DNA from: Terriglobia bacterium
Lineage (GTDB): Bacteria > Acidobacteriota > Terriglobia > Bryobacterales > Bryobacteraceae
Length of the DNA: 64,000 nucleotides
NCBI GenBank assembly: GCA_963768075.1
Contig: CAVYHD010000022.1
Coordinates: forward strand, 45,802-109,801
Reading direction: 5' to 3'
Shown: positions 42,867 through 64,000 of the stretch, piece after piece
Layout: each line of letters opens with the position of its first letter
Position numbering within the stretch: position 1 is the first letter of the stretch
Position numbers and translations under genes: made by a program
The notes under the pieces: generated by a model
Databases searched by the model: none
Seen by the model: the letters and a program-made list of their open reading frames with translations, nothing else
What the model was told of the DNA's origin: nothing

Positions 42867-45800
42867 ATGAAAAGCCTCCGGTACAGCGCATGTTTGCTGT
42901 TCCTGATTTTCACTGCCGTCGGCCTGTATGGACAGGAGAGCGGCTCGATCACCGGTACCGTCAGAGACAATACGGGCGCTGTGGTTCCTGGGGCTGAAGT
43001 CAACATTACGAGCCAGGCCCAAGGGGGGATCCAAAAGGTCACCACCAACTCGAATGGCGACTTCCTGGTGGCGGGACTTTCAGCGGGGACCTACGACATC
43101 ACGATCACCGCCAACGGCTTCAAGAAGTACGCGGCTACAGGGTGTGGTGCTGCGCGTCGGGCAGAAGGCGCGTGCCGACGCTACGCTGCAAGTCGGCGAG
43201 ATCACGACGGAGGTGACCATAGCGGGGGAAGCCGTGGCCGTAGGTGGAAACGCAATCCGCGGAGATATCGGGAATTGTCACCGGCAAGGAGATCAGCCAG
43301 ATCGTCCTGAACGGCCGCAATTTCTCGCAGCTTGTGACCCTGACGCCGGGCGTGAGCAATCAGACCGGTGAGGATGAAGGCACGGTCGGCATCATGGGCA
43401 ACGTCGCGATGAGCATCAACGGCGGCCGCACCGAATACAACAACTGGGAGATGGATGGCGGCGACAACATGGATAACGGCAGCAACAACGGGCTGAACGT
43501 CTATCCCAACGTGGATGCCATCGCCGAAGTCAAGGTGCTGACCTCGAACTACGGCGCGCAGTACGGCCGCAACGCGTCGGGCACGATTGAGACGGTAACC
43601 AAGTCCGGCACCAAGGGGTTCCACGGCGATCTGTTTGAGTTCGTCCGCAATGACGACTTTAACGCGCGAAATTTCTTCCAGGCGACGGTTCCCGAGTACA
43701 GGAAGAACGACTTCGGCTTACACCCTTGGGGGGCCGCTTTATATTCCCGGCTTTTACAACACGAAGAAAGAAAAAACATTCTTCTTCTGGTCCGAGGACT
43801 GGCGCCGGGAGATTATCCCCGGGCAAACCTTCGATCTTCAGGTTCCCTCGGCTGCCGAGCGGGCCGGAAACTTCTCTGATGTCTGCCCTGGGGCGGGTTC
43901 TATGGTAAACAAGACCGGATTCCCGGATTGCCCGGTGAATCCGAAGACCGGCTCCTATTTCCCGAACAACACGGTTCCCGTCGATCCTAACGCCGCGGCG
44001 CTGCTGACGCTGATGCCGGCGGCCAACGCGCCCAATAGCTACTACGATGCGGCTCCGGCCCAGCCCACGCATTGGCGCGAAGAGTTGGTTCGTATTGATC
44101 ACAATTTCAGCGACAACTTCCGGATTTTCGGTCACTTCATCCACGATTCCTGGAACACCGTTACGCCCGACTCCGCTTTGGGGCAACGGCGCGTCTTTCC
44201 CGACCATACAAACGGCGTTCAACGGCCCTGGCGTCAGGCCGTGTTGCCATGGCGGCCAACATTTCGCCCACGCTGTTGAATGAGTTCACTTTCAGCTACA
44301 CCACCGATCACATTTTCCTGAATGCGCTCGGCCCCGCACAGCGGCCGTCGACAATGACCATGACCGGCCTGTACAACAACGGTTTCGGCGGTCTGTTGCC
44401 GGCGGTCAGCGTAAGCGGCGGGATCAACTACGATACCGGCGGATTCCAACTCGACACCGGATACTTCCCCTGGAACAACGCCAACCCCACCTACACGTAC
44501 AAGGACCAGATCACCAAGATCATCGGCGGTCACAATCTTATATTTCGGCGCTTACCTGGTTCTGGCGGAGAAGAACGAGCAGAACAGCCCCTATGTTCAG
44601 GGCATCCTGAACTTCGACAACACGTCGCCGGTAACCACCGGCAATGCGTTTGCCGACATGCTGAATGGCGACATCCAGTCTTACACGCAGACCAATCTGA
44701 AAACGAAGTACTACAACCGCTACAAGATTGTCGAGCCTTACTTCCAGGACGACTGGCACATCACCAAGCGGCTCACGCTGAATCTGGGCGTGCGCTTGAG
44801 TCTGTTCGGAACCTACCGCGAGATACAACATCAAGCGTATAACTTCGATCCGGCAGCGTACCAACTTTCCGCCGCGCCACAGATCGATGCCACGGGCTCG
44901 GTAACGGGCCAAGCGGGCGCCATTATTCCCAACTCCGGCAATCCGTATACGGGACTGGTGCAATGCGGCGTCAACGGCGTGCCCGCGGGCTGCGCGAAAG
45001 GCCATTTGTTCAACCCGGCTCCACGCCTGGGCTTTGCTTTCGATCCGTTCGGGGACGGTAAATCCTCCATTCGCGGTGGCTACGGCGTATTTTTCGAGCA
45101 CACCAACGGCAACGAAGGCAACACCGAATCGCTCGAAGGGAGCCCTCCGCTGGTGCTCACGGGAACGCAGTACGATATCGTCGGCTATACCAAAATCGGC
45201 GGAGGTGGCGTGCAATTTCCGCTGAACGTCAATGCCATTCCGACGGTAGCTCGCTGGCCCTACGTGCAGCAGTGGAACCTGAGCGTGCAGCGTGAGTTGG
45301 CCAAGGGCACGATTCTCACCGTGGCGTACGTGGGCAGCAAGGGCACGCACCTTTCGCTCCAGACCGACATCAACCAGCTATACCCGATTTCGGCGGCGCA
45401 GAATCCATATCCAGCCGGGCAGGCTATGACGCAGGCGGACTGCAACAACGGTACTGTCAATGGCGTGGCTCCGACCGGGGCGGCTGCTATACAGTTTGGC
45501 ACCGCGTGTGGCAATAGCCCCGCCCCCTTCGTCCCGTACCGCGGCTACGGCACCATCACCGGGCTGTTTCCGCAAGCCAACTCGAACTACAACTCGATGC
45601 AGGTGTCCGTACACCGGCACATCGGCGCCCTGAGCTTCGATCTGGCGTACACGTGGAGCCACTCGCTCGATGACTCCTCTGACCGTTATGATGGCGGCTT
45701 CGTCAATTCCTACAACTGGGCGCAAACGTACGCCAGCTCGAATTTCGACCAGCGCCAGATTCTGAATATCGGCTACGTCTACGACCTTCCGTTCTTCACC

Positions 45801-46337
45801 GAGGCGGGTCTAAGCCACAAGCTGCTGGGTGGGTGGCAGGTTTCCGGGCTCACCACCTTCCAGTCCGGCGAACCTTTCAGTGTCAGCGACGGCCTCTTCA
45901 ACTCCGGTGTGGGCAACGGGACGGGCACTGGATCGTTTCTAGATCAGATTGGGAACCCCAATTCCGTCACGCAGCAAAATGTTGCGGGTGTTGTCGGCCC
46001 ACTGCTGTTCAATCCGTCCGCCTTTGCTGCGCCACAAGGGCTGACTTTCGGCACCGCGCAGCGCAATGCTTTGAACATCCCTCATCGAACGCAATTTGAC
46101 CTGGGCCTGTTCAAGTATTTCCAGGTCCGGGAGAGCAAGAGCTTTGAATTCCGTGCCGAGGGTTTCAACATCTTCAATCACACGCAGTTCAACGGCGTTA
46201 ACGGCGGCACGAGCTGCTTCGCTGGATCGGACTTCTCCGCCGGGGACGCGAGCTGCCTCGCCAACAACAACTTCCTGCGCCCGAGCGGGGCGCACAACCC
46301 GCGCATCCTGCAATTGGGCGCGAAGTTCATTTTCTAA
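42867..46337 (+). pseudogene. TonB-dependent receptor (CarboxypepD_reg + plug + barrel); about 6 frame breaks in the first half
   Basis: AAGGAG RBS followed by 'MKSLRYSACLLFLIFTAVGLYGQESGSITGTVRDNTGAVVPGAEV'. Breaks lie near 43140, 43245, 43718, 44165, 44232 and 44540. The gene reads cleanly from about 44540 to the C-terminal 'LQLGAKFIF'. Confidence 0.85.
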
Positions 46338-49229: not shown

Positions 49230-52200
49230 TTAGAAATGAAACTTGACCGCGGCCTGAATCAACCGTGGCGCAGCCGCACTCACTACACTACCGAAATTCG
49301 GGTCGTTGATTTCGCCGTCAACCGCGGATGGGCCGTAGAACTGGGCGTGGTTGAACACATTGAATGCTTCGACGCGAATATCCAACGATTTCGATTCCGT
49401 GATTGGCACCGTTTTGCTGATCTGCATGTCGAAGTTCTCGATACCCGGGCCATAGAAGAAGCGGCGCGCCGCGTTCCCTAACTGTCCGAGCGTCTCCGGC
49501 GCAAACAGACTGGTATTGAATTCAGGCCGGCCGTTGCGCGGATTGGTATTGATTTCGAGCGGTCCCGACATCATCTGCGGCGTGTCGAGCAGTTCATTGT
49601 TGACGCCGTTGCCAAGTGTTCCCAGCAGAGACCGGTCAGAATCGTCGGCAAGCGTCACCGGGAATCCCGTACTGAACCGGGTTGTTCCAGAAAGGCTCCA
49701 GCCCTCCGTCAAGCCGGTTGCGACGGAATAACTGATCGAATGGTAAGGCATAGGTATAGGTCGCCACGAAGTTCTGCGTCATGTCCCACGAGGAAATTAC
49801 GCGGGTGAGGCGCGCATTGAACGGATTGGTTTGCTCGCCCAGATTCGACGCCTCATCGATCGATTTCGAATACGTATAACCGACCAAAACCGTGGTTCGG
49901 TTGCTGGTGGCTAATCGCAGATTGACTTCGAGAGCGTTGTAATCCGAATTGCCGACGGACTTTTGCGCCGTCGTCGATCCGAAGCTAGGACCTAGCCCAA
50001 CCCGAGTTCCCTGGTACATTCTTCCCGATGCGGATGTGTAGGCGGCATCTTCGCCGAAGGGGCCGCAGGTGGAGCTTCCCGGCGCTACTTCGCTCGGCTG
50101 GCTGAGGCTGAGACACAAGCGCCGGATTGCCCAAGTTCGCCGGAACCAGGACCAGGAGATGATGGCCCTCATTGCCCGCATAGCTAACCGTCAACAGAGC
50201 GCTTTTGCGTAATTGTCGCTGAATTGAAAACATGTAGTTTTCGGTATAAGGCACACTGTTCCGGTAGTAGAAGTAAGGGTCTGCGCTGATCGGAGTGACG
50301 GCAGCGAAATCGAACCCCGTGTACGGATTTTTTGCAGAGACATTATGCGGCGGGAAGTTCAACGGGAATGGATCGGTATTCTCGGCGCCATTAGCCGAGT
50401 TGATATACGGCGTAGCAAACAGCGGCGGTTCCGGACTCAGATAGTTGTATCCGTAGGGAGGCACGCCATACATGATCCCTGCCGTTAATCCAGGAAATGC
50501 CGTGTAGAAAATGCCATAGCTTGCGCGAATGCTGCTCTTTCCCGGCTCGCCAACGAGAGTCTTTAGAAATCCATTGTCGAAGTTGGGAGAGTATGCGACG
50601 CCGACTCTGGGAGCGAAGTTGTGTAACTGCGAAGGCGACAACGTTGGCGGAATGCCGGGATCGCCCGGCACAACCAATCCATTCATTGCGTTGGGATAAA
50701 GCACCGATTGCTCGCCCGGAACCATGGTCTGGATCTGATTGTACTTTTCCCACCATGGCATGATGAGGTCCCAGCGCACGCCGAGGTTCAGGGTAAGATT
50801 GCTTCTCGCCCGCCAGCTATCTTCCGCGAAAGCTGCGCCGTATCGATTCCGCAAATAGAAGTGTGCGCCCGAGGTCTGCGTAAAGTTACTCGGAAACCCC
50901 AGTAGAAAATCAGCGAAGGCTGAGCCTGTTTCGGTTCCGTCGATATTGAACGTTCCATTGAACGTGGCATTCGGATCTTCATTGACTTGATCGTAGTGAA
51001 ACTGGCCGCCGAATTTGAGCGTATGGGCGCCGACAACCTTCGATACCGTGTTACTCAGATAAATCGTGTTGTTCCACTGATCTACGTTTGTGATCGGAAC
51101 CCCCATGACGAAAGACGGAAATACAATGTTCTCGACACCCTCAAACTGCGGCGCCTGGACGATTATGCCCGGTGTGCCGACGCCCGTCACGAAGCCTTGC
51201 GACTGAAGGGTTACTCCCAGACCGCCGTGCGGCTGGCCGATATTGTTCACATTTCGAAGTAAGCCGATGTGAAACTCGTTCACGGTCGTAGCGCCAAGGA
51301 CCTTGGTGTCGCCGATGGTAAGCATCTGCGCCTGGCCGATGGTTAAGGCATCGAATCCGGGTATGCTCGCTCCGCCCTGGCCGCCGGGATACGGATTATC
51401 CAGCCGGTAATTGTCGACGAAATAGTAACCAAAAAGCTGACCGAAACGTGTATTCGCATCGAGACGGACGCCGCCCTTGTCATCCCGCACAGTCTCCGGG
51501 TACGCGGAGGTGGCGAACAGATTCGTCCCTATGTTGGGCTGCGGGATATATTTCAGAAGATTCACTGCCGGCGACGACCACGCCCTGGTTGGGATCACGG
51601 CGTTTGGAAATACGCAGTTCGATGTGCTGGAACAGCCGGGCGCGTAGTAGGGCTCGCCTTGGGAAACGCCGTAGCCCGAGCTCTTGCGTGAGCAGCTTGG
51701 CCGTATAGGTCCCGCTCACAGTTCCCGTCAACGTACTCGCCATATCGCTCAGGTTTCCGGCACGATCCTGCAGGGAGGGCACGGACGTTTCTGGCGAATT
51801 GATGCCCTCCACCGTGCGCGTTCCCTGATAGTCGACAAAGAAAAAGAGCTTGTTCTTTATAATCGGACCGCCGACCACGCCGCCAAATTGATTCTGCCGG
51901 AAGGCGCCTCGTGTACTGTCGAAGAAATTTCGGGCGTCCAAGTCTGTATTTCGCAGAAACTCGAATGCATCGCCATGAAACGCGTTGCTGCCGGACTTCG
52001 TCACCACGTTAATCATCCCGCCGTTATAATTTCCGTATTCGGGATCGAAGTTGTTCGTCAGAACGCGGAACTGCTGGATCGAGTCCAGGTTCGGGATGAT
52101 CGATGTTCCCCCATTCATGTGCTCCTGCACGTCGATGGAATTCATCATGAATCCGTTCGACGATTCCCGTTGGCCATCGATCGAGACATCGCCCGGATTC

Positions 52201-52789
52201 AGATCGCCGGATGGGTTGATCGTTCCCGTCACGCCCGCCATGATCACCGAGGTTGGCGTCAGTGTCGTCACCGGGGTTACACCGGGTTGAATCGCGAGGA
52301 GGTCCGTGTAGCTGCGCCCGTTCAGCGGTAATGCCTCGATCTGCCGGTCGGATACAACCTCGCCGAGATGCGTCGCCACCGTGTCGACCTGCGTCTGCAT
52401 TGCCTCTTCGGATTCGTTAACCGTGACCGCCTCAGATCGTTGACCTACCTGCATTACGGTGTCAATGCGGAGAGCAGCATCAGTATCGACGGTGAGATTC
52501 GTTTTTTGCTGCTTCTGGAATTCGGTTGCCTCAATCGTCAAATCGTAATGGCCAACGGGAAGCGCTGGGAAGGAATAGAAGCCCTGCGCGTCGGAGGTCA
52601 CTTTAAACGTCGGTCTTAAGGGTAGTGTTGATCAGCGTGAGTTTGGCGCCAGGAATCGCGGCGCCGCTCGGATCCTTGACCACGCCCGGAGAGGCTCCCT
52701 GCGGCGAATGCCCAGACCCAGGCGGCCGGAACGACAACAAGTGCCGTGAGCTTCGTCAATCGTCTCGTTTTACGAAATCTTTCCCTCAT
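49230..52789 (-). pseudogene. TonB-dependent receptor (CarboxypepD_reg type); about 5 frame breaks
   Basis: The ATG at 52789 gives 'MRERFRKTRRLTKLTALVVVPAAWVWA'. Next come 'VKDPSGAAIPGAKLTLINT', 'TSDAQGFYSFPALPVGHYDLTIEATEF', the plug 'LPLNGRSYTDLLAIQPGV', and the C-terminal 'IQAAVKFHF'. Breaks lie near 52685, 52608, 51680, 50120 and 49725. Confidence 0.85.
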
Positions 52790-53512: not shown

Positions 53513-53970
53513 GACGACGTCCTCTTAATCTCGTGAATGGCGGCGACACTGAGAAAATTGGACTGTGTCGCGGGGTTATGATCCTGAGCCCCCAAGACCT
53601 CCTGGGCAAGTTCTGCCAGAGGAATGCGCCGTCTCCGGCTGGCGCCTCGCATGTACTCGTAGGCTTCTTGCTCGCTCAGCCCCCGCTCGACCTGGAGAAC
53701 ACCTTTGGCGCGCTCCACTAACTTTCTCGACGTGAGCCGCCCGTTCACGGTCTTGAGCTCTGCGTGTAGCCGCTCAATCTTTTTGACCGACCACGTCGCT
53801 AATCCGAACAGGCTCAGATTTTCCGCGAGCGCCTCGGGCACTCGATGATAAGGAGACGCTGGCGCCGCGAAGGCGAACACCACGGTGACCACACGCCGCC
53901 GAGCTCGCCAGGGAAACAGCAGAAAGGATCGGGAATCTGGCGAGATCGAATCACACAGAAGCTGAGCCAA
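53509..53970 (-). CDS. ANTAR-domain RNA-binding regulator, probably 5'-truncated
   Basis: '[48 protein letters not shown]' is a clear ANTAR domain. Only about 45 residues of a possible GAF end precede it. The frame closes 13 codons upstream of the TTG at 53970 (stop at about 54010-54012). Confidence 0.7.
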
Positions 53971-54750
53971 CGGGCTCCCGGACTCTACCGCTCCCGAAGT
54001 CTCACCAAATCAGCCGGGGCCACGCGCACCGCCGCTCTCGTCCGCCGGCGTATTGAGCGCGGCGGCGAACGGGTGTGGCGTCTTGAAGACTTTCGCGATC
54101 TGTCTTTCGAAGCTGTCGCGCAGGCGCTTTCACGCCTCGCACGCGACGGAACCCTTCAACGTCTGAGCAAAGGCGTTTACTATCGCACGCGCATGACTGC
54201 GTTCGGCAAGAGTCGTCCTAATCCTGCCACGATCCAGAAACTCGCATCCAAAAGTAAAGCGGTTTTCCCGGCAGGGATCGCCGCCGCCAATCTCTTGGGG
54301 TTCACAACGCAGACTACACAGCGCAACGAGGTGGCCACCAGCGCTCTCAGTCTACCGAGGAAGCTTGTCGGCAGCGAGACCGTCATCCACGCCCGCAGAC
54401 CGGAGACATGGGCGGGTCTCTCCCAGGAGGACGCAGCCATGCTCGACTTTCTGAGGCAAGCGGGGCGAACGAGCGAACTCTCTGCGCGCGACACCATCCG
54501 CCGAACGCTAACGCTTCTGTCAGACAAAGGCCGCTTCGAGCGTTTGCTTAGAGTCGCCGACTCGGAACCACCACGCGTGCGCGCTATCCTCGGAGCGATC
54601 GGCGACCAGCTCGGCAAAAATCAACCGGCGCTCAAGCATCTCCGAGAATCCCTGAATCCATTCTCGAAATTCGACTTTGGCGTCCTGTCAGGATTGCGCC
54701 ACGCAAGCAACTGGCAGGCCAGGGAGCCTCACGCGCATGAGACTGTTTGA
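53845..54750 (+). CDS. AbiEi-type antitoxin/regulator (DUF6088-like subtype); start uncertain
   Basis: wHTH '[26 protein letters not shown]'. The gene overlaps the following AbiEii gene by 14 nt. No ATG/GTG/TTG lies between 53845 and the conserved N-terminus near 53990, and the first 125 nt overlap the ANTAR ORF. Confidence 0.65.
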
Positions 54751-55756
54751 GCACCGCGATTTCGAGCAGGCGATTCTGGGGGCGGCGGAACACTTTCGCG
54801 ATCAGGGATTGCGGCCAGCGATCATCGAGAAAGACTACTACGTCACCGAAGCGCTGCGTGTTATCGCCGCCACCAGGCACAACAACAGCATCACCAACGA
54901 CAACAGCATCATCAACCGCAACATCGTCACCAACAGCAGCATCATCTTCAAGGGCGGCACCAGCTTATCCAAGGGATGGAACCTTATTCAAAGGTTTTCG
55001 GAGGACATCGACATCTTCCTTGACCCGCAGGCCTTTCAACCTCCTCTCGTGAAAAAGGGCCATCGACCGAGAACTTAAGAAACTTCGCGACACCGTCGGT
55101 GCGCACCCGGCGCTAAGGTTTGTCGAAGGGGAAAGTCAGACCATCGGCGGATTCGGGCGCAATGACCGGTTTGCCTACGAGCAGCGTTTCGGCGGTCCCG
55201 GCGAAGTCACGCCCCCGTGTGCTGCTCGAAGCCGGCACCGCCAGCGGACGTGAGCCTACGAGCGTCGTTGAGCTGCACTCGTACTTGGGACAGTTCTTAC
55301 GGGACAAGGGCCCGTCTCTTGGCGCAGAAGACGAAGGATCGTTTCCGATGCGCCTGCTCCACTTCCGGCGTACGTTTGTGGAGAAGATGTTCGCGATACA
55401 CAGCAAGGTGGAACTGCTCAAGCGCGATGGACAGCCACTCGGCTCTTACGCGCGTCATTACTACGACCTGTTTCAATTGGCTAGCGCACCGGGAAGTCAT
55501 CGCGATGCTGAACTCCGCCGAATACGCGGCTATCAAAGAGGACTACGACCGCATCAGCCGCGCTTATTTCCCCAAGAGCTATTTTCATCCCGACGAGATG
55601 AGCTTCTCCAAGAGCGACGCGCTATTTCCGCCCCCGGATTTGGCGGCGAGCATCGGTGCCGCGTATGAAGCCCAGTGCAGGATGCTTTGTTACGGTCCGC
55701 ACCCGTCATGGAACGACATTCAGGCCCGCTTTCTGCAACTTCGAGAGCTGCTGTAA
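54737..55756 (+). pseudogene. AbiEii/AbiGii-family nucleotidyltransferase toxin; 3 frame breaks and an internal repeat insertion
   Basis: '[25 protein letters not shown]' (NTase motif), 'LLEAGTASGREP', and 'RHYYDLFQLA'. Breaks lie near 55055 (A5G3 run), 55212 (C5 run) and 55485. Confidence 0.8.
54881..54946 (+). repeat. Imperfect 15-18-nt tandem repeat (AAC..AACAGCATCAYC x4) inside the AbiEii gene
   Basis: aacaacagcatcacc / aacgacaacagcatcatc / aaccgcaacatcgtcacc / aacagcagcatcatc, encoding '[22 protein letters not shown]'. It is A/C-rich, unlike the surrounding DNA. Confidence 0.6.
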
Positions 55757-55905: not shown

Positions 55906-56231
55906 TGGTTGGCCCTCGAAGATTCGCCTGTCCAGCTCCAGGAGCGGGGAAGACGGGTGCCTGCGCGGGTCGTACCTAGTGTGCCTGGGAACATGCGACG
56001 AGATCGTATCTGTCTGTCGGCTCAGCACATTGGTCCCCTTCGTTTCACCCATTTTTTTTCGCTACGATTCAATTTCCAAGAGCAAGCCGATGGAGCCGAC
56101 GTATTTTGGGCACGTACTAGAAACGAATCCCGCACGCGAGCGCTCAGAGGCCCTCGGCGAGACTTGCTGGGCCTATCCCTCAACGCCAGATAGTGCTAGC
56201 CATCCGGGGTCCATACAATGGGAGAGCGCCA

Positions 56232-57166
56232 GTGCCCCTGATGGCCGACCGAATGCCGAAACTTCCGATTGCAATCGGCAGCTACGCTGAACAGAAGCGC
56301 TTCATCGAGCGAAACGATAGCTTTCTGCGCGAGTACCCTCGGCTCAATGACTTGTGCAAGAAAATATTTCTACGTGCTCTTAAAGGCCCGGACCGGCGAG
56401 AAGTCGAGAGGCTTCGCAAGCTTCCCGAGGCCGACCCGGCAGCCATTGCCTTCGAGGACAAGATGACGGCAGACCGTATCATCTTCTACCTGGGTAGAAT
56501 GGCCGTCGATGACTTTGGCGAGATCCTTACTCTCGCAGGAAACGGCCGCGGATTCGGTGCCTACAAGATCGTGCGGGGCATGTACGAGCGTATTGTTACG
56601 GCGCTCTACATGGAGAAGAATCCCGCCGAAGCGCGCAGCTTCGCCGAATCGTCCGCGATTATGAAGCTGAACTACCTGAAGCGCACGTTCGAGGCGAGCC
56701 CCGAATCAGGAACCGGTTCAGCGACAAGTTCATGGCGACGATTGAGCGTAATGCGGCAGCGGCGCAGGCCAAACGGAAACAATCGATATGCTCTAAATGC
56801 CGCCAGCCCATCACGCAGGAGGCGTGGACTCGGGTGAGCCTCGATGTGATGGCAAAAACCGTCGAGCCCGCGCTGGAAGTCTTCTACCCGCAGTTTTACC
56901 TTGAGGGAACCGCGCAGTCACACGCCAACATGTTCGGTGTCGAGCGTCGTCTGATCCGAAAAAAAAGCGGGGGAGTCACCTACAAGGAAACCTCTGAAGC
57001 GGAGGCGCGCTTCGCCGTGCATCTCGGTCATCACCTCATCGTCAGGTTGCTCGCAATGCAGAACCGGTATTTCGCTCTCGGCCTCGACGACGAAGTCCAA
57101 GAGCGCATTGATGCTTTTGTTGGGGTATGGAGGACCGGCCCGGCTAACCCGCCGCAATCCGAGTAG
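56232..57166 (+). pseudogene. Hypothetical helical protein (possibly DUF5677/AbiV-like; uncertain); one frame break near 56705
   Basis: GGGAGA RBS followed by a GTG at 56232 (or the ATG at 56241). 'GNGRGFGAYKIVRGMYERIVTALYMEKNPAEARSFAE' continues in the second frame as 'IRNRFSDKFMATIERNAAAAQAKRKQSICSKCRQ...'. An A8 run lies at about 56961-56968. Confidence 0.5.
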
Positions 57167-57444
57167 GCCGTCAAAAAGAGGCACGGTGCTTCGCGCCGAC
57201 TGAAGGGGTGACACGCCACCCCAGAATGGGTTGCTCAGTCTCACGGGAATCGAAACCGTTGCGCGGTGTCTGAACGCATCCGATCTTCTCGTATCTATTT
57301 GATTCTATTTACAGGGGCACCGATCCATTTGGCCATAATCGCTACGGGAATTCTCCGCGTGCGAGCAATGTGTGAGCAAAGCCCGAACGGGTTCGTCAAA
57401 TGGTCTGGCTGCCATCCTGGACGGGATCAATCGAAGATGGACGT

Positions 57445-59025
57445 ATGATAATCACGCAGGAGATCTTCGAAGCATTTCTGCACTGTCCGACCAAGTCGTA
57501 CTTGTCCTCCCACTCCGGCGCTGGGGCCGCCACCGCGCTGGTCCGAGCGCGGCAGCAGTGGGAAGAACTCTTTCGGCACACTGGTTCTTCCACCGTGAGT
57601 ACCCGTGTCCCTGACAATCAGGTGTACGTGGGGACACCTATCGCAGAGGCCATCCGACAGCAGCAGTACCGCGTGATACTCGACTGCACGCTCCAGGCAT
57701 CGGACTTGCGCGCGCACACCCACGGTTTGGAACTCGTCCGATCGCCCGGGGCCAAAGGCCGGAGCGCCTACGCACCGTTCCGCTTCGTGTCGACGGAAAG
57801 GATCTCGACGGCTGACAAACTCCTGCTGGCGTTCGATGCTTTTGTGTTTTCGCAGACCTACGGCACCACGCGGCCGCGCCTCGGTAAAGTTATTCACGGC
57901 CGGGACTACTCGGCAACCACGGTGCCGCTAGCGCCGCTCTATGCCAAAGTTCAATCCGTCGTCACTGCTATTGCTTCTCAACATATCAGCGCCACGCCAC
58001 CGCCACTCGTGCTGAACAAGCATTGCGCCGAGTGCCAATATGCAGCCCGATGTCGAGAATTCGCGATAAAGGCGGACGATCTGAGCCTTCTCGCCAAGAT
58101 GAGCGAGAAGGACCGCCAAAAGTATCACGAGAAAGGCATTTTCACGGTCACCCAACTGTCGTTCACGTTCCGACCGCGGCGGCGCATTGGCGACCACAGA
58201 AAGCATGAGCACGCCTTGCAAGCCCTGGCCGTTCGAAAAAATCAGGTTCATGTCATCGGCCCACTCATATATGCTACGGCGGGCACCGCAGTCTATATCG
58301 ACGTCGAAGGCGATCCCGATCGTGATTTCTATTACTGCATCGGTCTTCGGTTTGAAGCCGACGGAGTGATTGTTCAGCGCTCGTACTGGGCCGATAGCCC
58401 CTCGGACGAAGTAATGATGTGGGCCGATTGCCTATCTGCGCTGGGCACGATCGATGACCCACGCCTGGTGCACTACGGAAGCTACGAGACTACGTTCCTT
58501 CGCCAAATGAGAAAGCGATACCCCAATGCCGAACGGGCCGCTCTGCTCGACCAGCTCATCGCGTCGGCCGTCAACCTGCTCTCAACGATCTACTCTCACG
58601 TGTACTTTCCCACGTATTCCAATGGCCTTAAAGACGTGGCGGGCCATCTCGGCTTTCGCTGGTCAGATGCCACGCCGTCGGGCCTGGTCGCTCTTGCTCG
58701 GCGTCGAGAGTGGGAATGCACGCGGGCGCCCGAGCTCAAACACATGCTAGTGACGTACAACGCGGAGGATTGTGCCGCTGCCCAAACAGTTGCCGAAACG
58801 CTCGCCGCACTCTCGCGATCCTCACCTACGTGTAACGGCAATATTGTGGACGTGATTAAGCTGAAGCGCGAATATCCCCAGCGGTTCGGGAAAATCGATT
58901 TCGCGCTCCCAGAGTTTCAACAGATTAATGATGCGGCTTACTGGGACCACCAGCGCGAGAAAGTGTACGTGCGTTCCAGCAAGCGCCTAGAAAAAACAGC
59001 GCGGAAGCTTCTGGAGAGAGTCTAA
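57445..59025 (+). CDS. RecB/Cas4-like nuclease + RNase-H-fold 3'-5' exonuclease (TM0106-family layout)
   Basis: The Cas4-type Cys pattern has an N-terminal 'FLHCP' plus 'KHCAECQYAARC' (C-x2-C-x5-C). The exonuclease motifs are 'AVYIDVEGDP' (ExoI), 'HYGSYETTFL' and 'TYNAEDC' (Y-x3-D). I could not pick out the PD-(D/E)xK catalytic residues confidently by eye. Confidence 0.8.
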   Translation: MIITQEIFEAFLHCPTKSYLSSHSGAGAATALVRARQQWEELFRHTGSSTVSTRVPDNQVYVGTPIAEAIRQQQYRVILDCTLQASDLRAHTHGLELVRSPGAKGRSAYAPFRFVSTERISTADKLLLAFDAFVFSQTYGTTRPRLGKVIHGRDYSATTVPLAPLYAKVQSVVTAIASQHISATPPPLVLNKHCAECQYAARCREFAIKADDLSLLAKMSEKDRQKYHEKGIFTVTQLSFTFRPRRRIGDHRKHEHALQALAVRKNQVHVIGPLIYATAGTAVYIDVEGDPDRDFYYCIGLRFEADGVIVQRSYWADSPSDEVMMWADCLSALGTIDDPRLVHYGSYETTFLRQMRKRYPNAERAALLDQLIASAVNLLSTIYSHVYFPTYSNGLKDVAGHLGFRWSDATPSGLVALARRREWECTRAPELKHMLVTYNAEDCAAAQTVAETLAALSRSSPTCNGNIVDVIKLKREYPQRFGKIDFALPEFQQINDAAYWDHQREKVYVRSSKRLEKTARKLLERV

Positions 59026-60217
59026 CGTTCCGGTAACGAAGGTCGTAGAGTGCGAGGAGCGACGGCCCCATCGCTGCGCTGAATGTGGTGCGACGACAAT
59101 CTATCGATGGGGGCGACTTAGCCGAGTCGTCTACGACCTCAAATTGTCCGGGGCTGGCATCAAACGGCTGGTTATACGGTATTCCTTCCCCCGTTACATC
59201 TGCTGGTGCTGCAAGACCACCTTTCATCAGTATGCAAGCCAAGCCAAGTACGGCAACACCCTCTGCGCCTATATCGTCTATCAAATCGTTGAACTGCAAC
59301 TGCCACAACACGCTGTGGCAAAGAGCATGTGTCAGTTATTCAACATCCCGACGTCTTCCGGCATGATCAATCATCGCAAAGCCGGCATGGCCGAGCGTTA
59401 CGAGAACACATACCAATGCATCCTCGAAAGGATTGCGGGCGGCACGCTTGTGCATGCGGATGAGACGCGGGCTACCGTCGCTGGAAAGGCGGCATACGTC
59501 TGGGTGTTTACAAGCCTGGAGGATGTGGCGTTCGTTTACAGTGAGAGTCGCGAGGGAAGCACCGCACAAAAGGTGCTGCAGCAGTTCCGCGGCGTGCTGG
59601 TTTCCGATTTCTACGCTGGCTACGATTCCATCGCCTGCGCGCAGCAAAAGTGCCTGATTCATTTGATGAGGGATATCAACGATGATCTCTTTAAGCAGCC
59701 GTTCAATGACGAGATGAAGGAGATCGGGAGGCGGTTCGCGGAGCTGCTGCGACCCATCATCGACTCCGTGGACCGCTTTGGCCTTAAGACTCGCTACCTG
59801 CGTAAGCACGGGCGAGCCGTTGAGCGGTTTTATCAGACGCTCTCAAGGCGGGAGTACCAAACCGAAGTGGTGGCTGGCTACGTACGGCGCTTCGAAAAGA
59901 ATCGGGACCGCTTGTTTACGTTCCTGGATCATGACGGCGTCCCCTGGAACAACAATAACGCCGAACACGCGATCAAGGCATTTGTGCGACTACGGAACAT
60001 CATCGGGGGCGCGAGCACGGCAAAGGGCCTGCGAGAGTACCTCGTCCTTCTGAGCATCAGTGAAACCTGCAAATGCAAGGGGGTTCGTTTTCTTGATTTC
60101 CTGTTGTCACAGGAGTCTGACGTGGACAAATTCGCCAGCCACGGGCGACTTCGGCGCGGGATTTCAGACGGCAAATCATTGGTTGGCCTCGCGGCCGGGA
60201 TGACACTGGCGGATTGA
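58991..60217 (+). mobile_element. IS66-family-type DDE transposase ORF (zinc finger + HTH + DDE) without its own start codon
   Basis: zf-IS66-like 'CAECGATTIYRW...RYSFPRYICWCCKTTF'. DDE residues lie in 'LVHADETRA', 'VLVSDFYAGY' and 'WNNNNAEHAIKAF', with 'QKCLIHLMRDI' between them. The frame opens at 58991 right after a TAG. The first ATG/GTG/TTG is TTG 59144, which would remove half of the zinc finger. No inverted repeats or tnpA/tnpB found. Confidence 0.8.
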
Positions 60218-60286
60218 TCGGCGCTGGAAGTGATCCTGCCCGGATTTGCGCGCCGCGCCACGCATTCTGCCGAAAAACAAGGCGTT

Positions 60287-60299
60287 TGATGTAACATCA
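60287..60299. promoter_or_regulatory. Palindrome TGATGT-a-ACATCA 22 nt upstream of the AbiEi start (candidate operator)
   Basis: Read directly. AbiEi proteins are known to autoregulate through inverted repeats in their promoter, but this one is short. Confidence 0.25.
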
Positions 60300-60320
60300 A
60301 GAAAGTTGTAGTATTGTGTT

Positions 60321-60932
60321 ATGGCCCAGTCTCACCGTGAAGCGTCGCGGCGGCTCTTTGAGTTCGCCGAGCAGCAGCAGGGCTTCTTCACCACGAAGCA
60401 GGCCAAGGCAGCCGGATTCGCCGAAAACACGCATCCCTATCATGTGCAGGTCGGGAACTGGATCCGCGAGCACCGCGGTATCTACCGGCTCGCTCTGTTT
60501 CCGACGGCTGATCGGCCCGACCTCGTCCTTTGGGCGCTGTGGTCGCGGAACCGGAACGAGGAAGTCGAGGGTGTATACAGCCACCACACGGCGCTCAGCC
60601 TCTACGATCTGTCGGATCTGAATCCGGCGAAGCTCCACATGACGGTTCCGACGGATTTCCGGCGCAACAGCGATATTCCCGGCATCCTCGTACTTCATTA
60701 TGCCGACCTGCCCGAGAGCGACGTACAGACGGCGCAGGGCTTCAAGTTTACTCGCCCTCTGCGGACGATTCTTGACCTGATCGAGGCTGGCACGGTCGAA
60801 CGGAACTTCATCCGCCAGGCGCTAAGGCAGGCTGTTGACCGTGGTCTGATCACTCGCCAACAGATTCGGAACGCGCGAATGAGCGGACCTGCGCGCAAGA
60901 TCGTTGAGGAAGTGCTGCGGCGAGCTGCATAA
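60321..60932 (+). CDS. AbiEi-family antitoxin / transcriptional regulator
   Basis: 'FFTTKQAKAAGF...HRGIYRL' N-terminal wHTH pattern. TAATG stop/start overlap with the next gene. Confidence 0.85.
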   Translation: MAQSHREASRRLFEFAEQQQGFFTTKQAKAAGFAENTHPYHVQVGNWIREHRGIYRLALFPTADRPDLVLWALWSRNRNEEVEGVYSHHTALSLYDLSDLNPAKLHMTVPTDFRRNSDIPGILVLHYADLPESDVQTAQGFKFTRPLRTILDLIEAGTVERNFIRQALRQAVDRGLITRQQIRNARMSGPARKIVEEVLRRAA

Positions 60933-61816
60933 TGCCGTCACCCAGGACATATTCGACGGCGGGGGCATTCCGAAGGGCGCTTGAAGAACGCCTGAAGAGG
61001 GCATCTCTGACTGATCAGATCGACCTCAATCGCCTCCGGCGGCAAGTATCATTCGACCGTCTGCTGGCAAGGCTGTTCCGTGAAGAACCAGCACCCTGGG
61101 TTTTGAAGGGCGGTTACGCGTTGGAGCTACGCTTCAAGGCTGCTCGATCAACGGTGGACATCGACCTGACGTTGCAGCGAGTGGTCGCCGCAACATCAGC
61201 GGGCGATGACACAAACCAGGTAGTACGGCAGATGCTGCAGAGTGTGGCTGACATCCCTCTCGGTGATTGGTTCGAGTATGCGATCGGACCGCCCGTCATG
61301 GATTTGACCGCCGCGCCTTACGGCGGTGCCCGCTATCCCGTCGAAGCTCGAATGGACGAACGGATCTTTGCCCGATTCCACCTGGACGCCGGCGTTGGTG
61401 ACGTGGTTATGCAGCCGCTGGAAACGATCGAGTGCCGGGACTGGCTGGGATTCGCCGGCATCGAATCGTCGCAGGTCCTGATGATCGCTCGCGAACAGCA
61501 GTTCGCCGAAAAGATTCATGCCTACACGCTCCCGCGGAACACTGCGAACAGCAGAGTGAAGGACTTGGTGGACCTGGCTCTCCTGATCGGATCGGGTGGG
61601 CTGGATAAACAGCGGATTCTGGACGCTTTGCGTCTGACCTTTGAGAGAAGAGGAACGCACGATTTGCCGACGGGTTTGGTTCCGCCGCCAGCGGATTGGC
61701 AGATCCCGTTTCAGGCCCTGGCGGAAGAATGCGGGCTCCCGACAGATGTCGCCGCGGTGTTTGCGGGGGTACAGGAGTTCCTCGAAGAAGTGCTGGCACA
61801 GCGCACGGAGCGGTGA
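60932..61816 (+). CDS. AbiEii/AbiGii-family nucleotidyltransferase toxin (intact)
   Basis: 'WVLKGGYALELRFKAARSTVDIDLTL' (NTase G-G...D-x-D) and 'SRVKDLVDLALL'. Confidence 0.85.
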   Translation: MPSPRTYSTAGAFRRALEERLKRASLTDQIDLNRLRRQVSFDRLLARLFREEPAPWVLKGGYALELRFKAARSTVDIDLTLQRVVAATSAGDDTNQVVRQMLQSVADIPLGDWFEYAIGPPVMDLTAAPYGGARYPVEARMDERIFARFHLDAGVGDVVMQPLETIECRDWLGFAGIESSQVLMIAREQQFAEKIHAYTLPRNTANSRVKDLVDLALLIGSGGLDKQRILDALRLTFERRGTHDLPTGLVPPPADWQIPFQALAEECGLPTDVAAVFAGVQEFLEEVLAQRTER

Positions 61817-61823
61817 ACGCCGT

Positions 61824-64000
61824 ATGACTGAGAACGGTTCAGAATCTCTTCCATTCGAACCTCCAGAGCAGGAAAATATTCGCCTCCGTGAGGAAAATGC
61901 TCGCCTGCGGCGGCTTCTGGCGGTTCACAGCATTCCGATTCCGCAACTTGCGCCAGAGAATCCGCCTCCAGCCAAAACCGTCGAGACGGCGCCACCGGTG
62001 GACAAGGAGGAGCGTGCCAGAAAGAGAATCGCGCTGTTTCGAAGCCTGTTTCGCGGGAGAGAAGATGTCTACGCACGGCGATGGGAGAATGACGACGGCC
62101 GGTCGCGGATATATGCCGGCGGCCGTGAAGGATTGGAAGGCTATCAACAAAAGCCGCCCGGAGGAGCGGAAGAAAGTCGACCAGAAGACACGGAAGTTCC
62201 TCCCAATGACCGACGCCGTCATCGAGAACCACCTCTTGGGCAAGGAGACCGTTGGCGTGTATCCGCTCCTGCCCGACGAAACGTGCTGGTTTCTCGCGGC
62301 AGACTTCGACAAGAAGACGTGGGAGTATGACTCCCAGGCTTTCCTTGAGACCTGCCAGGAGTTGAGTGTGCCCGCTGCCCTGGAGCGTTCTCGTTCCGGG
62401 AAGGGCGGCCACATTTGGATCTTCTTTGATCGTGCGCTGCCGGCGATTACCGCGCGCAAACTGGGATGCGTGATTCTCACGCGAACCATGGAGCGCAGGC
62501 ATCAGCTCGGTCTCGATTCCTACGATCGCTTTTTCCCCAACCAGGACACGATGCCCAAGGGAGGGTTCGGGAACCTGATTGCGCTCCCCTTGCAGTTTGC
62601 GCCGCGCAAGTCGGGTAACAGCGTGTTCATTGACTCCGACTTCCACCCTTATCCCGACCAATGGCAGTTTCTTTCGACGATTCGACGAATGCCGGCCGAC
62701 GCCGCGGAGGAGATCGTTGCGGAAGCTCAGCGCAAAGGCGACCTGATCGGAGTCCGGATGAGCATCGCCGATGACGAGGGTGCACAGGACCCGTGGACTT
62801 TGCCGCCTTCCCGCAAGCGAAGGGAGCGGCCAATCGAAGGGCCGCTGCCAAAGAGTGTTCAGATCGTTCGCGCGAATCTTGTTTACGTGGAAAAGAAGGA
62901 TCTACCACCAGCCATGCTGAATCGGCTACTCCGGCTGGCAGCATTTCAGAACCCCGAGTTTTACAAGGCTCAGGCGATGCGGCTTTCGACGTACGACAAG
63001 CCGCGCGTGATCGCGTGCGGCCAGGAATTCGCCCAGCACATCGCGGTGCCTCGTGGATGTCTGACGGAGACGTTGGCTCTCCTTGAGGCGCACAAGATTC
63101 GGCCAGAAGTTCGCGACGAACGGTACTCAGGCACAGCGATTGAAGCGGAGTTCCAAGGTCAGCTTCGACCGTTCCAGGAGGAAGCGGTCGCGAAGATCAC
63201 TGCACATGACGAAGGTATCCTCTGTGCTCCGACCGCATTCGGGAAAACCGCCGTTGCGGCGTGGCTGATTGCGAAACGCAAGGTCAACACTCTGGTCGTC
63301 GTTCACCGGCAGCAGTTGCTCGATCAGTGGCAGGAGCGCCTGGGGATGTTCTTGGATCTGCCAGCCAAATCGATCGGGCACATCGGTGGAGGGAAAACGG
63401 AACGGACCGGGTGCGTGGACGTCGCCGTCATCCAAAGCCTGTATCGAAAAGACGAAGTGAAGGACTTCGTTGCTGAATACGGCCAGGTGATCGTCGACGA
63501 ATGCCACCACATATCTGCTTTTACGTTCGAACAGGTGATGAGGCAGGTGAAGGCCAAATATGTTGTCGGCCTGACCGCAACGCCTACACGGAAAGACGGG
63601 CACCATCCGATCATTTACATGCAGTGTGGCCCCGTGCGGTTCAGCATGAGCGCCCGGACGATGACCGAAACGACGCCTTTCGAGCACAAGGTGACTCCCC
63701 GCCATACGGAGTTCCGGATGGCGCCCGACCTTACCGAGGTCACGATTCAGGACATCTACGCCGCGCTCGTCGATGATGCCTCGCGCAACGAGATGATCGC
63801 CAACGATATCGTAGCGCGCCATAGAATCGGGACGTTGCCCGCTGCTTCTGACCGGCCGGACAGAGCATCTTCAGTATTTCGCATCCAAACTTGCAGGTGT
63901 TGCCAAGCACGTCTTCGTTTTGAAGGGTGGCATGGGGAAGAAGCAGCGCCGGGCAACCGCGGCGGCGCTGGCATCAGTGCCGGAAGATGAATCGCGGGTT
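61824..64000 (+). pseudogene. Archaeo-eukaryotic-primase (AEP/PrimPol)-like domain fused to an SF2 (DEAH/type III restriction-like) helicase; 3' end outside window; 2 frame breaks
   Basis: N-terminal coiled coil 'ENIRLREENARLRRLL' and 'LFRSLFRGREDVYARRWE'. AEP motif I is 'WFLAADFDKK' and motif II is 'ERSRSGKGGHIWIFF', followed by 'GGFGNLIALPLQ'. Helicase motifs are Walker A 'APTAFGKTAVA', 'VIVDECHHI' and 'GLTATPTR'. Breaks lie near 62105 and 63815. After the second break the frame continues 'AIESGRCPLLLTGRTEHLQYFASKL...' to the window end. Confidence 0.8.

Follow-up and report, generated by a model that had tools for sequence, protein, structure and literature searches.

Positions 57445 to 60217 of the window, i.e., the whole stretch of 64,000 nt of a Terriglobia bacterium that was analysed, very probably represent a single gene, which is interrupted by a net 2-nt deletion at linker codon ~518 of ~925 and which encodes a three-module protein. 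The first module is of the TM0106 type and comprises a Cas4-like domain and a predicted exonuclease, the second consists of a family-specific connector and a zinc ribbon, and the third is an IS66-type DDE transposase core. The uninterrupted homologs form a fusion family that unites three nucleic-acid-enzyme modules in one chain and that is widespread and annotated in databases, yet unstudied, as we found no characterisation of it. For the window itself the result is mostly housekeeping; the wider interest lies in the family.

All features described here are located on the forward (+) strand, and inspection of the sequence bore out the reading frames of the original prediction. The first ORF starts at 57400 or 57445 (541 or 526 aa) and ends with the TAA at 59023-59025, and the family alignment places its true start at the ATG at 57445. 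The second frame is related to it by +1, overlaps it at an A6 run (58991-58996), is open from 58991 directly after a TAG (58988-58990), and stops at the TGA at 60215-60217. This transposase frame is indeed start-less. Its earliest ATG, GTG or TTG is a TTG at 59144, which is located between the two CxxC motifs of the zinc ribbon, 3' of the first ("CAECG", Cys codons 59075 and 59084) and 5' of the second (59201 and 59210), so that an internal start would cost the DDE half one half of its zinc ribbon. Because the copy is split, the normal start can yield only the N-terminal 526 aa, including the out-of-frame tail of the first ORF (58997-59025, TARKLLERV up to the TAA). The gene belongs to a unit of ~3 kb with a 5' leader at 57172-57444; relatives that lie in different genomic contexts are homologous from 57172 (L092), 57206 (L001) or 57243 (L091) onward.

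The four closest relatives (L001, L091, L092, and L090; 94-98% nucleotide identity) are uninterrupted and have GAAAAACTGCAG where the window has GAAAAAACAG. The lesion, a change from AAAAACTGCAG to AAAAAACAG, combines the deletion of 2 nt with a substitution (net -2 nt). It created the A6 run and sits in a disordered, low-confidence linker of the protein model. Of the three options that had been offered for the junction, the first was a fusion of ~930 aa hidden by a one-base indel in the A run. The fusion stood, as fused homologs are abundant and the nearest relatives at the same locus are uninterrupted, but the one-base indel did not. Across the break, a Logan contig that was assembled independently (L095) shows 100% identity to the window. 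However, the window contains at least eight further frameshifts, some of them within housekeeping-type outer-membrane genes. No exact match to the window sequence near the break was present in the genome or metagenome collections scanned, and look-ups of two ORF products of the window, the one of 541 aa and a 559-aa outer-membrane fragment, retrieved no record. A recent inactivating mutation and an assembly indel have roughly even odds as the origin of the break, and a dead transposase, another of the three options, is a possible alternative reading of the same 2-nt lesion.

The remaining option was programmed +1 frameshifting or transcriptional slippage on the A run. In such a scheme, the full-length fusion would arise from the two frames by a +1/-2 ribosomal frameshift or by slippage, as in the regulation of IS1/IS3-type transposases. 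The overlap of the frames at the A6 run, the start-less downstream frame, and the otherwise intact halves are in agreement with recoding, as is the low number of window-specific substitutions (three synonymous, seven non-synonymous). However, no relative has two frames at this site: the close relatives are all single ORFs, and the same is true for essentially all of the best 120 of the 3,250 matches in the homolog search. The ancestral sequence is A5 followed by CTG and, therefore, the slippery site is not conserved. In addition, an A6 run is short for efficient slippage, and the heptamer phase (GAA AAA ACA) would favour -1, not the transposase frame. Recoding is thus very improbable. Even less credible, to the point that it can practically be dismissed, is the explanation that two independent genes lie side by side, namely, a separate TM0106 nuclease gene and, inserted next to it, the truncated remnant of an IS66 transposase. 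It is true that TM0106 modules exist without transposases, being fused to helicases instead, and that no IS ends are visible. Yet the junction region, comprising connector, linker, and zinc ribbon, is collinear and conserved across hundreds of single-ORF homologs, in tblastn every fused homolog matches both window frames back-to-back, and the same-locus relative is uninterrupted. Both ORFs should consequently be annotated as one frameshifted gene (a pseudogene or an assembly error), and there is no recoding signal to claim.

The first ORF matches the profile TIGR03491 ("TM0106 family RecB-like putative nuclease") with 151.1 bits (cut-off 97.45), and the match extends over the nuclease-like as well as the RNase H-like part (residues 4-451, model positions 2-460 of 462). 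The N-terminal domain (57445-58053) is Cas4/Dna2-like, has a PD-(D/E)XK fold, and contains a 4-Cys cluster of the Fe-S type (Cys codons 57484, 58024, 58033, and 58051), as deduced from an AF2 model, Foldseek, the alignment, and family conservation. A sequence profile search of this domain against the PDB yielded a chance match, a WhiB-like protein over the Cys motif, and therefore a fold comparison was needed. With the AF2 model, Foldseek retrieved Cas4 (8d3l) as the best match (E 1e-7, TM 0.56-0.66), and also Dna2 and AdnAB. The alignment of the catalytic D/E/K residues, which the original prediction had proposed as a check, revealed that the canonical residues have been lost in the fusion family. 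Canonical TM0106-helicase proteins retain the motifs GHADFL, YEV(I/V)DTK, and QLxxY. The window has His (57721), Arg (57781), and Val (57787) at the positions of the catalytic D, D/E, and K. Among the 188 members over which family conservation was scored, the GHADFL position is occupied by His in 133 and by Asp in 35, the D/E position of YEVIDTK by Arg in 179, and the K position by Val, Ile or Leu; the Arg and the Val/Ile/Leu replacements are found in at least 95% of the 188. The positions aligned to QLxxY are Leu and Asp. Judged by its sequence, the Cas4-like domain of the fusion family is catalytically degenerate and has apparently been converted from a nuclease to a binding domain. The conserved residues K32, D146, E133, and D139 could form a rearranged nuclease site, and the loss of D/ExK is no strict proof of inactivity.

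The Cas4-like domain is followed by a helical linker (58054-58290) with a helix-hairpin-helix-like motif, DDLSLLAKMSEKDRQKYHEKGIFTVTQL, which is common to canonical TM0106 proteins. The next domain (58291-58803) is RNase H-fold and exonuclease-like, and was identified as PF13482 (RNase_H_2) in the first ORF with an E value of 1.4e-15. Its DEDDy-type motif is complete in the window (D 58300, E 58306, E 58486, Y 58756, and D 58768), and the respective ExoI D-x-E, ExoII acidic, and ExoIII Y-x3-D residues (D301, E303, E363, Y453, and D457) are shared with canonical TM0106 proteins. The module is predicted to be an intact-looking 3'-5' exonuclease of the DEDDy type. A connector with the sequence ...EFQQINDAAYWDHQREKVYVRSSKRLE (58804-58990) is specific to the family, i.e., it is kept in the fusion proteins and missing from the helicase-linked TM0106 proteins. 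The leucine-zipper N-terminus that is usual for IS66 transposases is missing, as had been claimed, and everything before the zinc ribbon is filled by the TM0106 module and this connector.

The transposase half contains the zinc ribbon (CxxC...CxxC, 59075-59212), which is followed by the IS66-type DDE catalytic domain (59249-60031) with the triad D 59459, D 59606, and E 59963 and a C-x2-H-x2-R-D signature from 59651, and by C-terminal helices and a tail (60032-60217). It matches PF03050 (DDE_Tnp_IS66; E 1.3e-35, 123.6 bits, cut-off 23.1) and NF033517 (IS66 family transposase; 202 bits, cut-off 180, model positions 16-380 of 387). C752/H755/R758, the DDE triad, and the four zinc-binding Cys are all present in the window copy and are 98-100% conserved or invariant in the 188 members. 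In a fold comparison of the zinc ribbon plus DDE part, the best match in the PDB was the transposase of ISCth4 (6xgx, IS256 family; E 9e-9). ISCth4 is a copy-out/paste-in enzyme and does not need a second-strand nuclease.

These features bear on the suggested analogy to TnsA+TnsB of Tn7. A genuine Cas4/Dna2-type PD-(D/E)XK fold that is covalently joined to a DDE core whose triad is intact would be in accordance with a Tn7-like single chain of two nucleases, in which the 5' strands would be cut by the restriction-fold domain and the 3' strands by the DDE domain, resulting in cut-and-paste transposition. However, the canonical Asp/Glu/Lys residues that helicase-linked TM0106 proteins keep are replaced, the inverted repeats and target duplications expected for such an element were not found around the loci analysed, and the closest solved fold of the DDE part is ISCth4. 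The analogy was therefore not upheld, and a Tn7-like mechanism is unlikely.

Full-length fused homologs in other genomes, for which the original prediction had advised a BLAST search, turned out to be abundant. The homolog search resulted in 3,250 matches, and the best 120 of these are nearly all single ORFs of 840-940 aa with PF13482 and PF03050. Over the family as a whole, more than 3,000 database proteins combine both parts in a single ORF of about 900-950 aa, and at least 552 fusion loci are present in species-representative genomes. They are distributed over more than 10 phyla, including Acidobacteriota, Verrucomicrobiota, Planctomycetota, Proteobacteria, Nitrospirota, and Bacteroidota, and the fusion gene is also present on cyanobacterial plasmids. 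Both halves are under purifying selection (dN/dS 0.2-0.4), and the four Cys of the Cas4-like domain, D301/E303/E363/Y453/D457, the Cys of the zinc ribbon, and D688/D737/E856 are 98-100% conserved in the 188 members. That this architecture had not been described is essentially right. A search of the literature on IS66 together with RecB, Cas4 or exonuclease, on TM0106, and on COG2251 yielded no characterisation of the family. The sole trace found is a table entry that notes pfam03050+COG2251 genes, four in number, in Solibacter usitatus (PMC3469429).

The unit that is shared by family members has a size of about 2.8-3.1 kb and is essentially the ORF with a short leader. Its right edge is at ~60196 in the window; the final ~20 nt of the ORF and the TGA (60215-60217) are also found before AbiEi in contigs without the fusion gene. 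In agreement with the original prediction, neither tnpA/tnpB nor terminal inverted repeats are present beside the window gene. No inverted repeats above shuffle level were detected around this gene, in 70 related loci, at the ends of a 7.15-kb conserved block or in short contigs, and no direct repeats indicative of 8-bp target duplications were seen at the homology break points, as far as these could be placed, i.e., to about 10 bp. Given this precision, short imperfect inverted repeats could have been missed. Three candidate signatures were rejected. A 31-bp repeat pair in one locus (L057), considered as element ends, is a genome-wide REP-like repeat that is scattered through verrucomicrobial loci. 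For a T-arm-like sequence at the left boundary, GGGAATCGAAACC, ARAGORN and Rfam detected neither a tRNA nor another RNA. The clustering of homolog contigs at 3.0-3.3 kb is not a repeat signature, but an ascertainment effect, because a contig must be longer than 2.75 kb to contain the whole gene.

The window contains one copy of the fusion gene. Leaving aside Solibacter usitatus with its four reported genes, genomes with two to three copies carry paralogs of 64-77% nucleotide identity, and no recent intragenomic copies were found among the genomes examined. The contexts of the fusion genes are unrelated and are often integrative elements, plasmids or the neighbourhood of toxin-antitoxin genes; integrase, relaxase, ArdC, AbiE, PIN or HipA genes are frequent neighbors. 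A recurrent neighbor was not detected in 64 loci, an all-against-all BLAST of 126 neighbors gave no cluster larger than two, and a Pfam census of 96 neighbors was heterogeneous. No family relatives were found in IMG/VR viral contigs. The PADLOC v2 defence models gave no match for two members (P0001 and P0102), and a member from Acaryochloris matched generic Cas4 models only, via its N-terminal domain.

It is a quite realistic possibility, although not the probable one, that the protein is a domesticated transposase-derived enzyme that travels as cargo of integrative elements and plasmids, e.g., with a function in defence, anti-defence or DNA processing, and that is not a transposon. The gene is single-copy, two exact proteins (P0102 and P0121) occur in one stable context each across many samples, all modules are under purifying selection, and the lack of detected inverted repeats and target duplications as well as the frequent mobility and toxin-antitoxin genes nearby are in line with domestication. 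However, the family has no conserved partner gene in the loci compared, and the negative results with PADLOC and IMG/VR also speak against this explanation. Moreover, near-identical genes (89-94% nucleotide identity) of different species have wholly unrelated flanks, with homology that stops at the ORF edges, and this looks like self-mobility.

In the reading that we favour, and judging from motifs and folds, the DDE core would cleave DNA strands and transfer them, and the exonuclease would trim or resect 3' ends of the donor or the target. The Cas4-like domain would bind DNA ends or single strands and would not act as a second-strand nuclease. Taken as a whole, the protein may be an autonomous mobile element of a single gene and of low activity, or else a transposase that has been recruited by mobile elements. 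A further possibility, which we put forward tentatively and with some doubt, is that the fusion family represents an uncharacterised type of DNA-rearranging enzyme. In this enzyme, a DEDDy exonuclease and a Cas4-like Fe-S domain that is nuclease-dead and binds DNA would have taken the place of the N-terminus and the helper proteins that usually accompany an IS66-type DDE core, and the enzyme would move, or act on DNA, without inverted repeats or target duplications. If true, this would represent a mechanism of transposition or DNA processing that differs from every IS66, IS256, and Tn7 pathway described, in a family for which the hallmarks of DDE insertion sequences, i.e., inverted repeats, target duplications, and copy-number bursts, were not detected. 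To our knowledge, little is known about the chemistry by which IS66-type enzymes transpose. The natural fusion with an exonuclease suggests that the IS66-type reaction includes the processing of 3' ends, and the fusion protein offers a compact single-protein system to study this chemistry.

Among known systems, the C-terminal ~400 aa with zinc ribbon, DDE triad, and C-x2-H-x2-R resemble the IS66 family, in particular its ISBst12/ISH10-like single-ORF group, and the ISBst12 group likewise lacks tnpA/tnpB. However, the identity to the transposases of ISH10, ISNpe24, and ISAs21 is only ~25%, a TM0106 module of 520 aa replaces the usual N-terminal coiled-coil, and the inverted repeats, target duplications, and multi-copy behaviour of IS66 elements were not detected. 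ISCth4 is the best match among solved structures for the zinc ribbon plus DDE part, but it has only 12-14% sequence identity, belongs to another IS family, has inverted repeats, and contains neither an exonuclease nor a Cas4-like module. With TM0106 proteins (TIGR03491/COG2251) the fusion family shares the N-terminal Cas4-like 4-Cys domain, the helix-hairpin-helix linker, and the PF13482 DEDDy exonuclease. In contrast, canonical members carry a Dna2/NAM7-type SF1 helicase and D...(D/E)xK...QxxxY, whereas the fusion family carries a DDE transposase and has lost these motifs. Tn7 also pairs a restriction-fold protein, TnsA, with a DDE transposase, TnsB. However, the nuclease TnsA is active and forms a polypeptide of its own, and the ends of Tn7 are defined and flanked by 5-bp duplications, whereas in the fusion family the active site of the restriction-fold domain is degenerate and no ends were found. 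Cas4-Cas1(-Cas2) adaptation complexes resemble the fusion family in the physical coupling between an Fe-S domain of the Cas4 fold and a DNA integrase, and in that end processing is joined to integration. However, Cas1 is not a DDE enzyme, Cas4 is catalytically active in these complexes, and the fusion gene has no CRISPR context.

In the window, the first ORF runs from ATG 57400 to TAA 59023-59025, and the family alignment places its real start at ATG 57445. It matches TIGR03491, the TM0106-family 'RecB-like putative nuclease' (151 bits, cut-off 97), and its residues 283-453 form the RNase H-fold domain PF13482. The +1 frame opens at 58991, directly after TAG 58988-58990, spans the AAAAAA run at 58991-58996, and stops at TGA 60215-60217; it encodes an IS66-family transposase (PF03050, E 1.3e-35; NF033517, 202 bits, cut-off 180). 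Its earliest possible start codon, TTG 59144, follows the first CxxC pair of the zinc ribbon (Cys codons 59075/59084) and precedes the second (59201/59210), and therefore an internally initiated product would lack half of the ribbon. When the window sequence was re-checked, everything that the original prediction states on the sequence and coordinates of the two frames proved correct.

The conceptual fusion of the two frames was compared with 5.8 billion proteins, which yielded 3,250 matches. Among the best 120 of these, almost all are single ORFs of 840-940 aa that contain both PF13482 and PF03050, with identities down to 51%. Full-length fused homologues, whose existence had been left to such a search, are thus abundant in other sequences. 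The top match, P0001, covers 100% of the query with 98% identity, and in an alignment of 30 sequences the junction is collinear and conserved throughout. The contig encoding P0001 (L001) comes from a related genome and represents the same locus; AbiEi/AbiEii lie downstream of the gene, and identity to the window is 97.6% over 4.6 kb. At the break site L001 reads …CTAGAAAAACTGCAGCGC…, versus …CTAGAAAAAACAGCGC… in the window, and AAAAACTGCA(G/A) is also present in the close relatives L091, L092, and L090 (94-96% nucleotide identity). The window has therefore lost 2 nt net, with a substitution (CTG to A), and this lesion produced the A6 run. The proposal of a single fusion gene hidden by a one-base indel thus holds for the fusion, in view of the fused homologues and uninterrupted relatives, but not for the type of lesion. 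The break maps to a linker that is disordered in the AlphaFold model (P0001 residues 515-543). Among the relatives dN/dS is 0.2-0.4 in both halves of the gene, while the private changes of the window lineage (three synonymous, seven non-synonymous) are too few to judge relaxed selection. Whether the break is a mutation or an artefact, the product of the locus is, or was until very recently, a single fused protein.

Programmed frameshifting, which had been offered as another way to join the two frames, is not supported, because the two-frame layout is found in no relative, the A6 run lacks conservation, and the phase of the codons would favour -1, whereas +1/-2 is required. The break may be a real mutation: a 1,443-bp Logan contig (L095), an independent build from run ERR10755941, is 100% identical to window positions 58884-60326, break included, and the change is more than a simple homopolymer miscount. 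It may equally be an assembly error, as frame breaks are unusually abundant in the window. The TOTE primase-helicase gene downstream of the fusion gene is distributed over three frames by 1-nt insertions at 62106 and 63815, compared to the intact gene in L091/L092 (820 aa). Downstream of a second AbiEi/DUF6088-like gene lies an AbiEii toxin gene (54677-55756; both genes together 53845-55756) that is split into two or more frames (54677-55078 and 55120-55668). Two genes for TonB-type outer-membrane beta-barrels (PF25183) are broken into four overlapping ORFs (43244-46334, plus strand) and at least two overlapping ORFs (49988-52601, minus strand), which suggests either a high indel error rate of the assembly or a decaying genome. 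Such a density of frame breaks is typical of indel-prone long-read assemblies. A DUF5677-like gene at 56193-57166 may represent another frameshift, as its two ORFs (56193-56837 and 56732-57166) overlap but differ in frame.

Conservation was analyzed with 188 family members of 41-98% identity. The exonuclease motifs D301-x-E303, H-Y-G-x-Y-E363, and Y453-x3-D457 are invariant and are shared with the canonical, helicase-linked TM0106 proteins. The Zn-ribbon cysteines, the DDE triad D688/D737/E856, and the C-x2-H-x2-R-D signature are invariant as well. The window copy has retained all of these residues, and these modules look intact. Among solved structures, the C-terminal part is matched best by the ISCth4 transposase (IS256 family) and next by Hermes and retroviral integrases, and the classical single-ORF IS66-group transposases ISH10, ISNpe24, and ISAs21 are only about 25% identical to the fusion family.

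The N-terminal approximately 200 residues adopt a Cas4/Dna2/AdnAB-type PD-(D/E)XK fold in an AF2 model (pLDDT 78), for which Foldseek retrieved Cas4 in 8d3l (E 1e-7) and also Dna2, SSO0001, and AdnAB. All four cysteines of the cluster are essentially invariant in the 188 members. While the canonical TM0106 proteins retain the nuclease motifs GHADFL, YEV(I/V)DTK, and QLxxY in the alignment with the fusion family, the latter has His (133 of 188) or Asp (35) instead of the first Asp, a nearly invariant Arg (179) at the second acidic position, Val/Ile/Leu (161) instead of Lys, and Leu…Asp instead of Q…Y. Scoring of the catalytic residues thus revealed that the canonical D, D/E, and K are replaced, and by standard criteria the domain is therefore a putative nuclease-dead, Fe-S-type DNA-binding module. 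Alternatively, the conserved K32, E133, D139, and D146 may build a rearranged nuclease site.

The canonical TM0106 proteins on the plasmids L086, L087, and L088 (hosts Pseudomonas luteola, Sphingomonas changnyeongensis, and Rhizobium etli) have about 1,110 aa, and their Cas4-like and exonuclease module is fused to a Dna2/NAM7-type helicase. The helicase part matches Mokosh MkoA models, and a divergent gene for a WYL-domain regulator adjoins in two of the three cases (L087 and L088, not L086). These loci may represent an undescribed defence-type system.

Pairs of fusion-gene relatives from different species (89-94% nucleotide identity) have in common only the ORF, the 10-345 bp before it, and about ±40 bp at the stop codon, resulting in a unit of 2.8-3.1 kb. 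In the clade of the window, the left edge is at 57172-57243 and the right edge at about 60196. A terminator-like GC hairpin with a T-run (minus strand, 57170-57197), between the DUF5677-like gene and the fusion unit, is inside a segment common to L092 only. The AbiEi-AbiEii-TOTE cassette is found without the fusion gene in more than 60 metagenome contigs (84-94% identity). Of these, L222 and L282 contain the cassette with just the last ~20 nt of the fusion ORF and the intergenic spacer; therefore, the C-terminal tail specific to this clade results from read-through into flanking DNA. The fusion-AbiE-TOTE block of 7.15 kb stands behind three different upstream contexts, one of them an integrase/excisionase/relaxase element, and this linkage is lineage-specific. 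The neighbours at 64 other fusion loci have no relation to one another and include PIN, AbiEii, HipA, Cas1, and other transposases, up to ordinary metabolic genes. The AbiEi-AbiEii-AEP/TOTE primase-helicase cassette (60296-64000, running on past the window end) has a left edge that is sharp and shared by these contigs, at about 60296 (TCAAGAAAGTTGTAGTATTG), and, in L091/L092, a right edge about 100 bp beyond the helicase stop. It recurs in different contexts (L220-L299 among the more than 60 contigs) and resembles an independent mobile defence cassette.

No inverted or direct repeats above chance were found around the window gene, at related loci, at the ends of the 7.15-kb block, or in short contigs. 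The one strong inverted-repeat candidate, in L057, was rejected as a REP-like genomic repeat. This palindrome (CGTAGCAGCCGAGGTAACGAGGCTC) occurs in both orientations in verrucomicrobial loci, including around the fusion gene, and mimics terminal inverted repeats (L057 3386-3416, 3773, 3843, 6425, and 6496; also L053, L066, L108, and L148). Two exact family proteins were traced: P0102 has one fixed context in 12 contigs, and P0121, listed in 245 blocks of the collection, has one context in 24 of 24 contigs read. Genomes with two or three members contain divergent paralogues (64-77% nucleotide identity), and neither 2.9 million viral contigs nor the PADLOC models include the family. The picture is that of a single-gene unit with a low copy number and a patchy distribution, which moves horizontally and often resides in integrative elements and plasmids. 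It could represent either a quiet autonomous element whose ends are unconventional or a transposase that other mobile elements have recruited. In a Shewanella MAG (L034 1-3549) a member is located between tandem tRNA-Glu genes, beside an apparent truncated tRNA 3' half, and the contig ends are mutual repeats over 44 bp. In the Sulfotelmatobacter lineage (L096-L101 2480-3007) the fusion gene is preceded by two small ORFs (48 and 115 aa), and the overlap of the second ORF with the fusion start codon suggests translational coupling; this locus has an integrase/ArdC pair on one side and a Ser/Thr kinase-TPR gene on the other.

PGAP and IMG label family members as 'IS66 family transposase', 'TM0106 family RecB-like putative nuclease', or 'predicted RecB family nuclease'. 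The sole trace of the fusion in the literature searched is a table line with four 'transposase IS66 (pfam03050, COG2251)' genes of Solibacter usitatus (PMC3469429), and no discussion of it was found. A survey of the RNase H superfamily assigned COG2251/PF13482 proteins to the predicted 3'-5' exonucleases and noted their linkage to a DUF83 nuclease domain (PMC3985635). The window copy is ordinary, a broken gene among many broken genes. Its family is real and widespread, an uncharacterised variant of the IS66-type transposases that deserves experimental attention.

With respect to mechanism, the DDE core would perform strand cleavage and transfer, the covalently attached DEDDy exonuclease with its intact motifs would most plausibly trim or resect 3' ends of donor or target, and the Cas4-like Fe-S domain together with the HhH linker would bind DNA ends or single strands. 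ISCth4 is a copy-out/paste-in enzyme. The original prediction had compared the fusion to TnsA-TnsB of Tn7, with the restriction-fold domain as second-strand nuclease. This role is disfavoured because the active site is degenerate and also because the DDE part is structurally akin to ISCth4. The logic of the fusion would rather resemble Cas4-Cas1, in which end recognition and processing are coupled to integration, than TnsA-TnsB.
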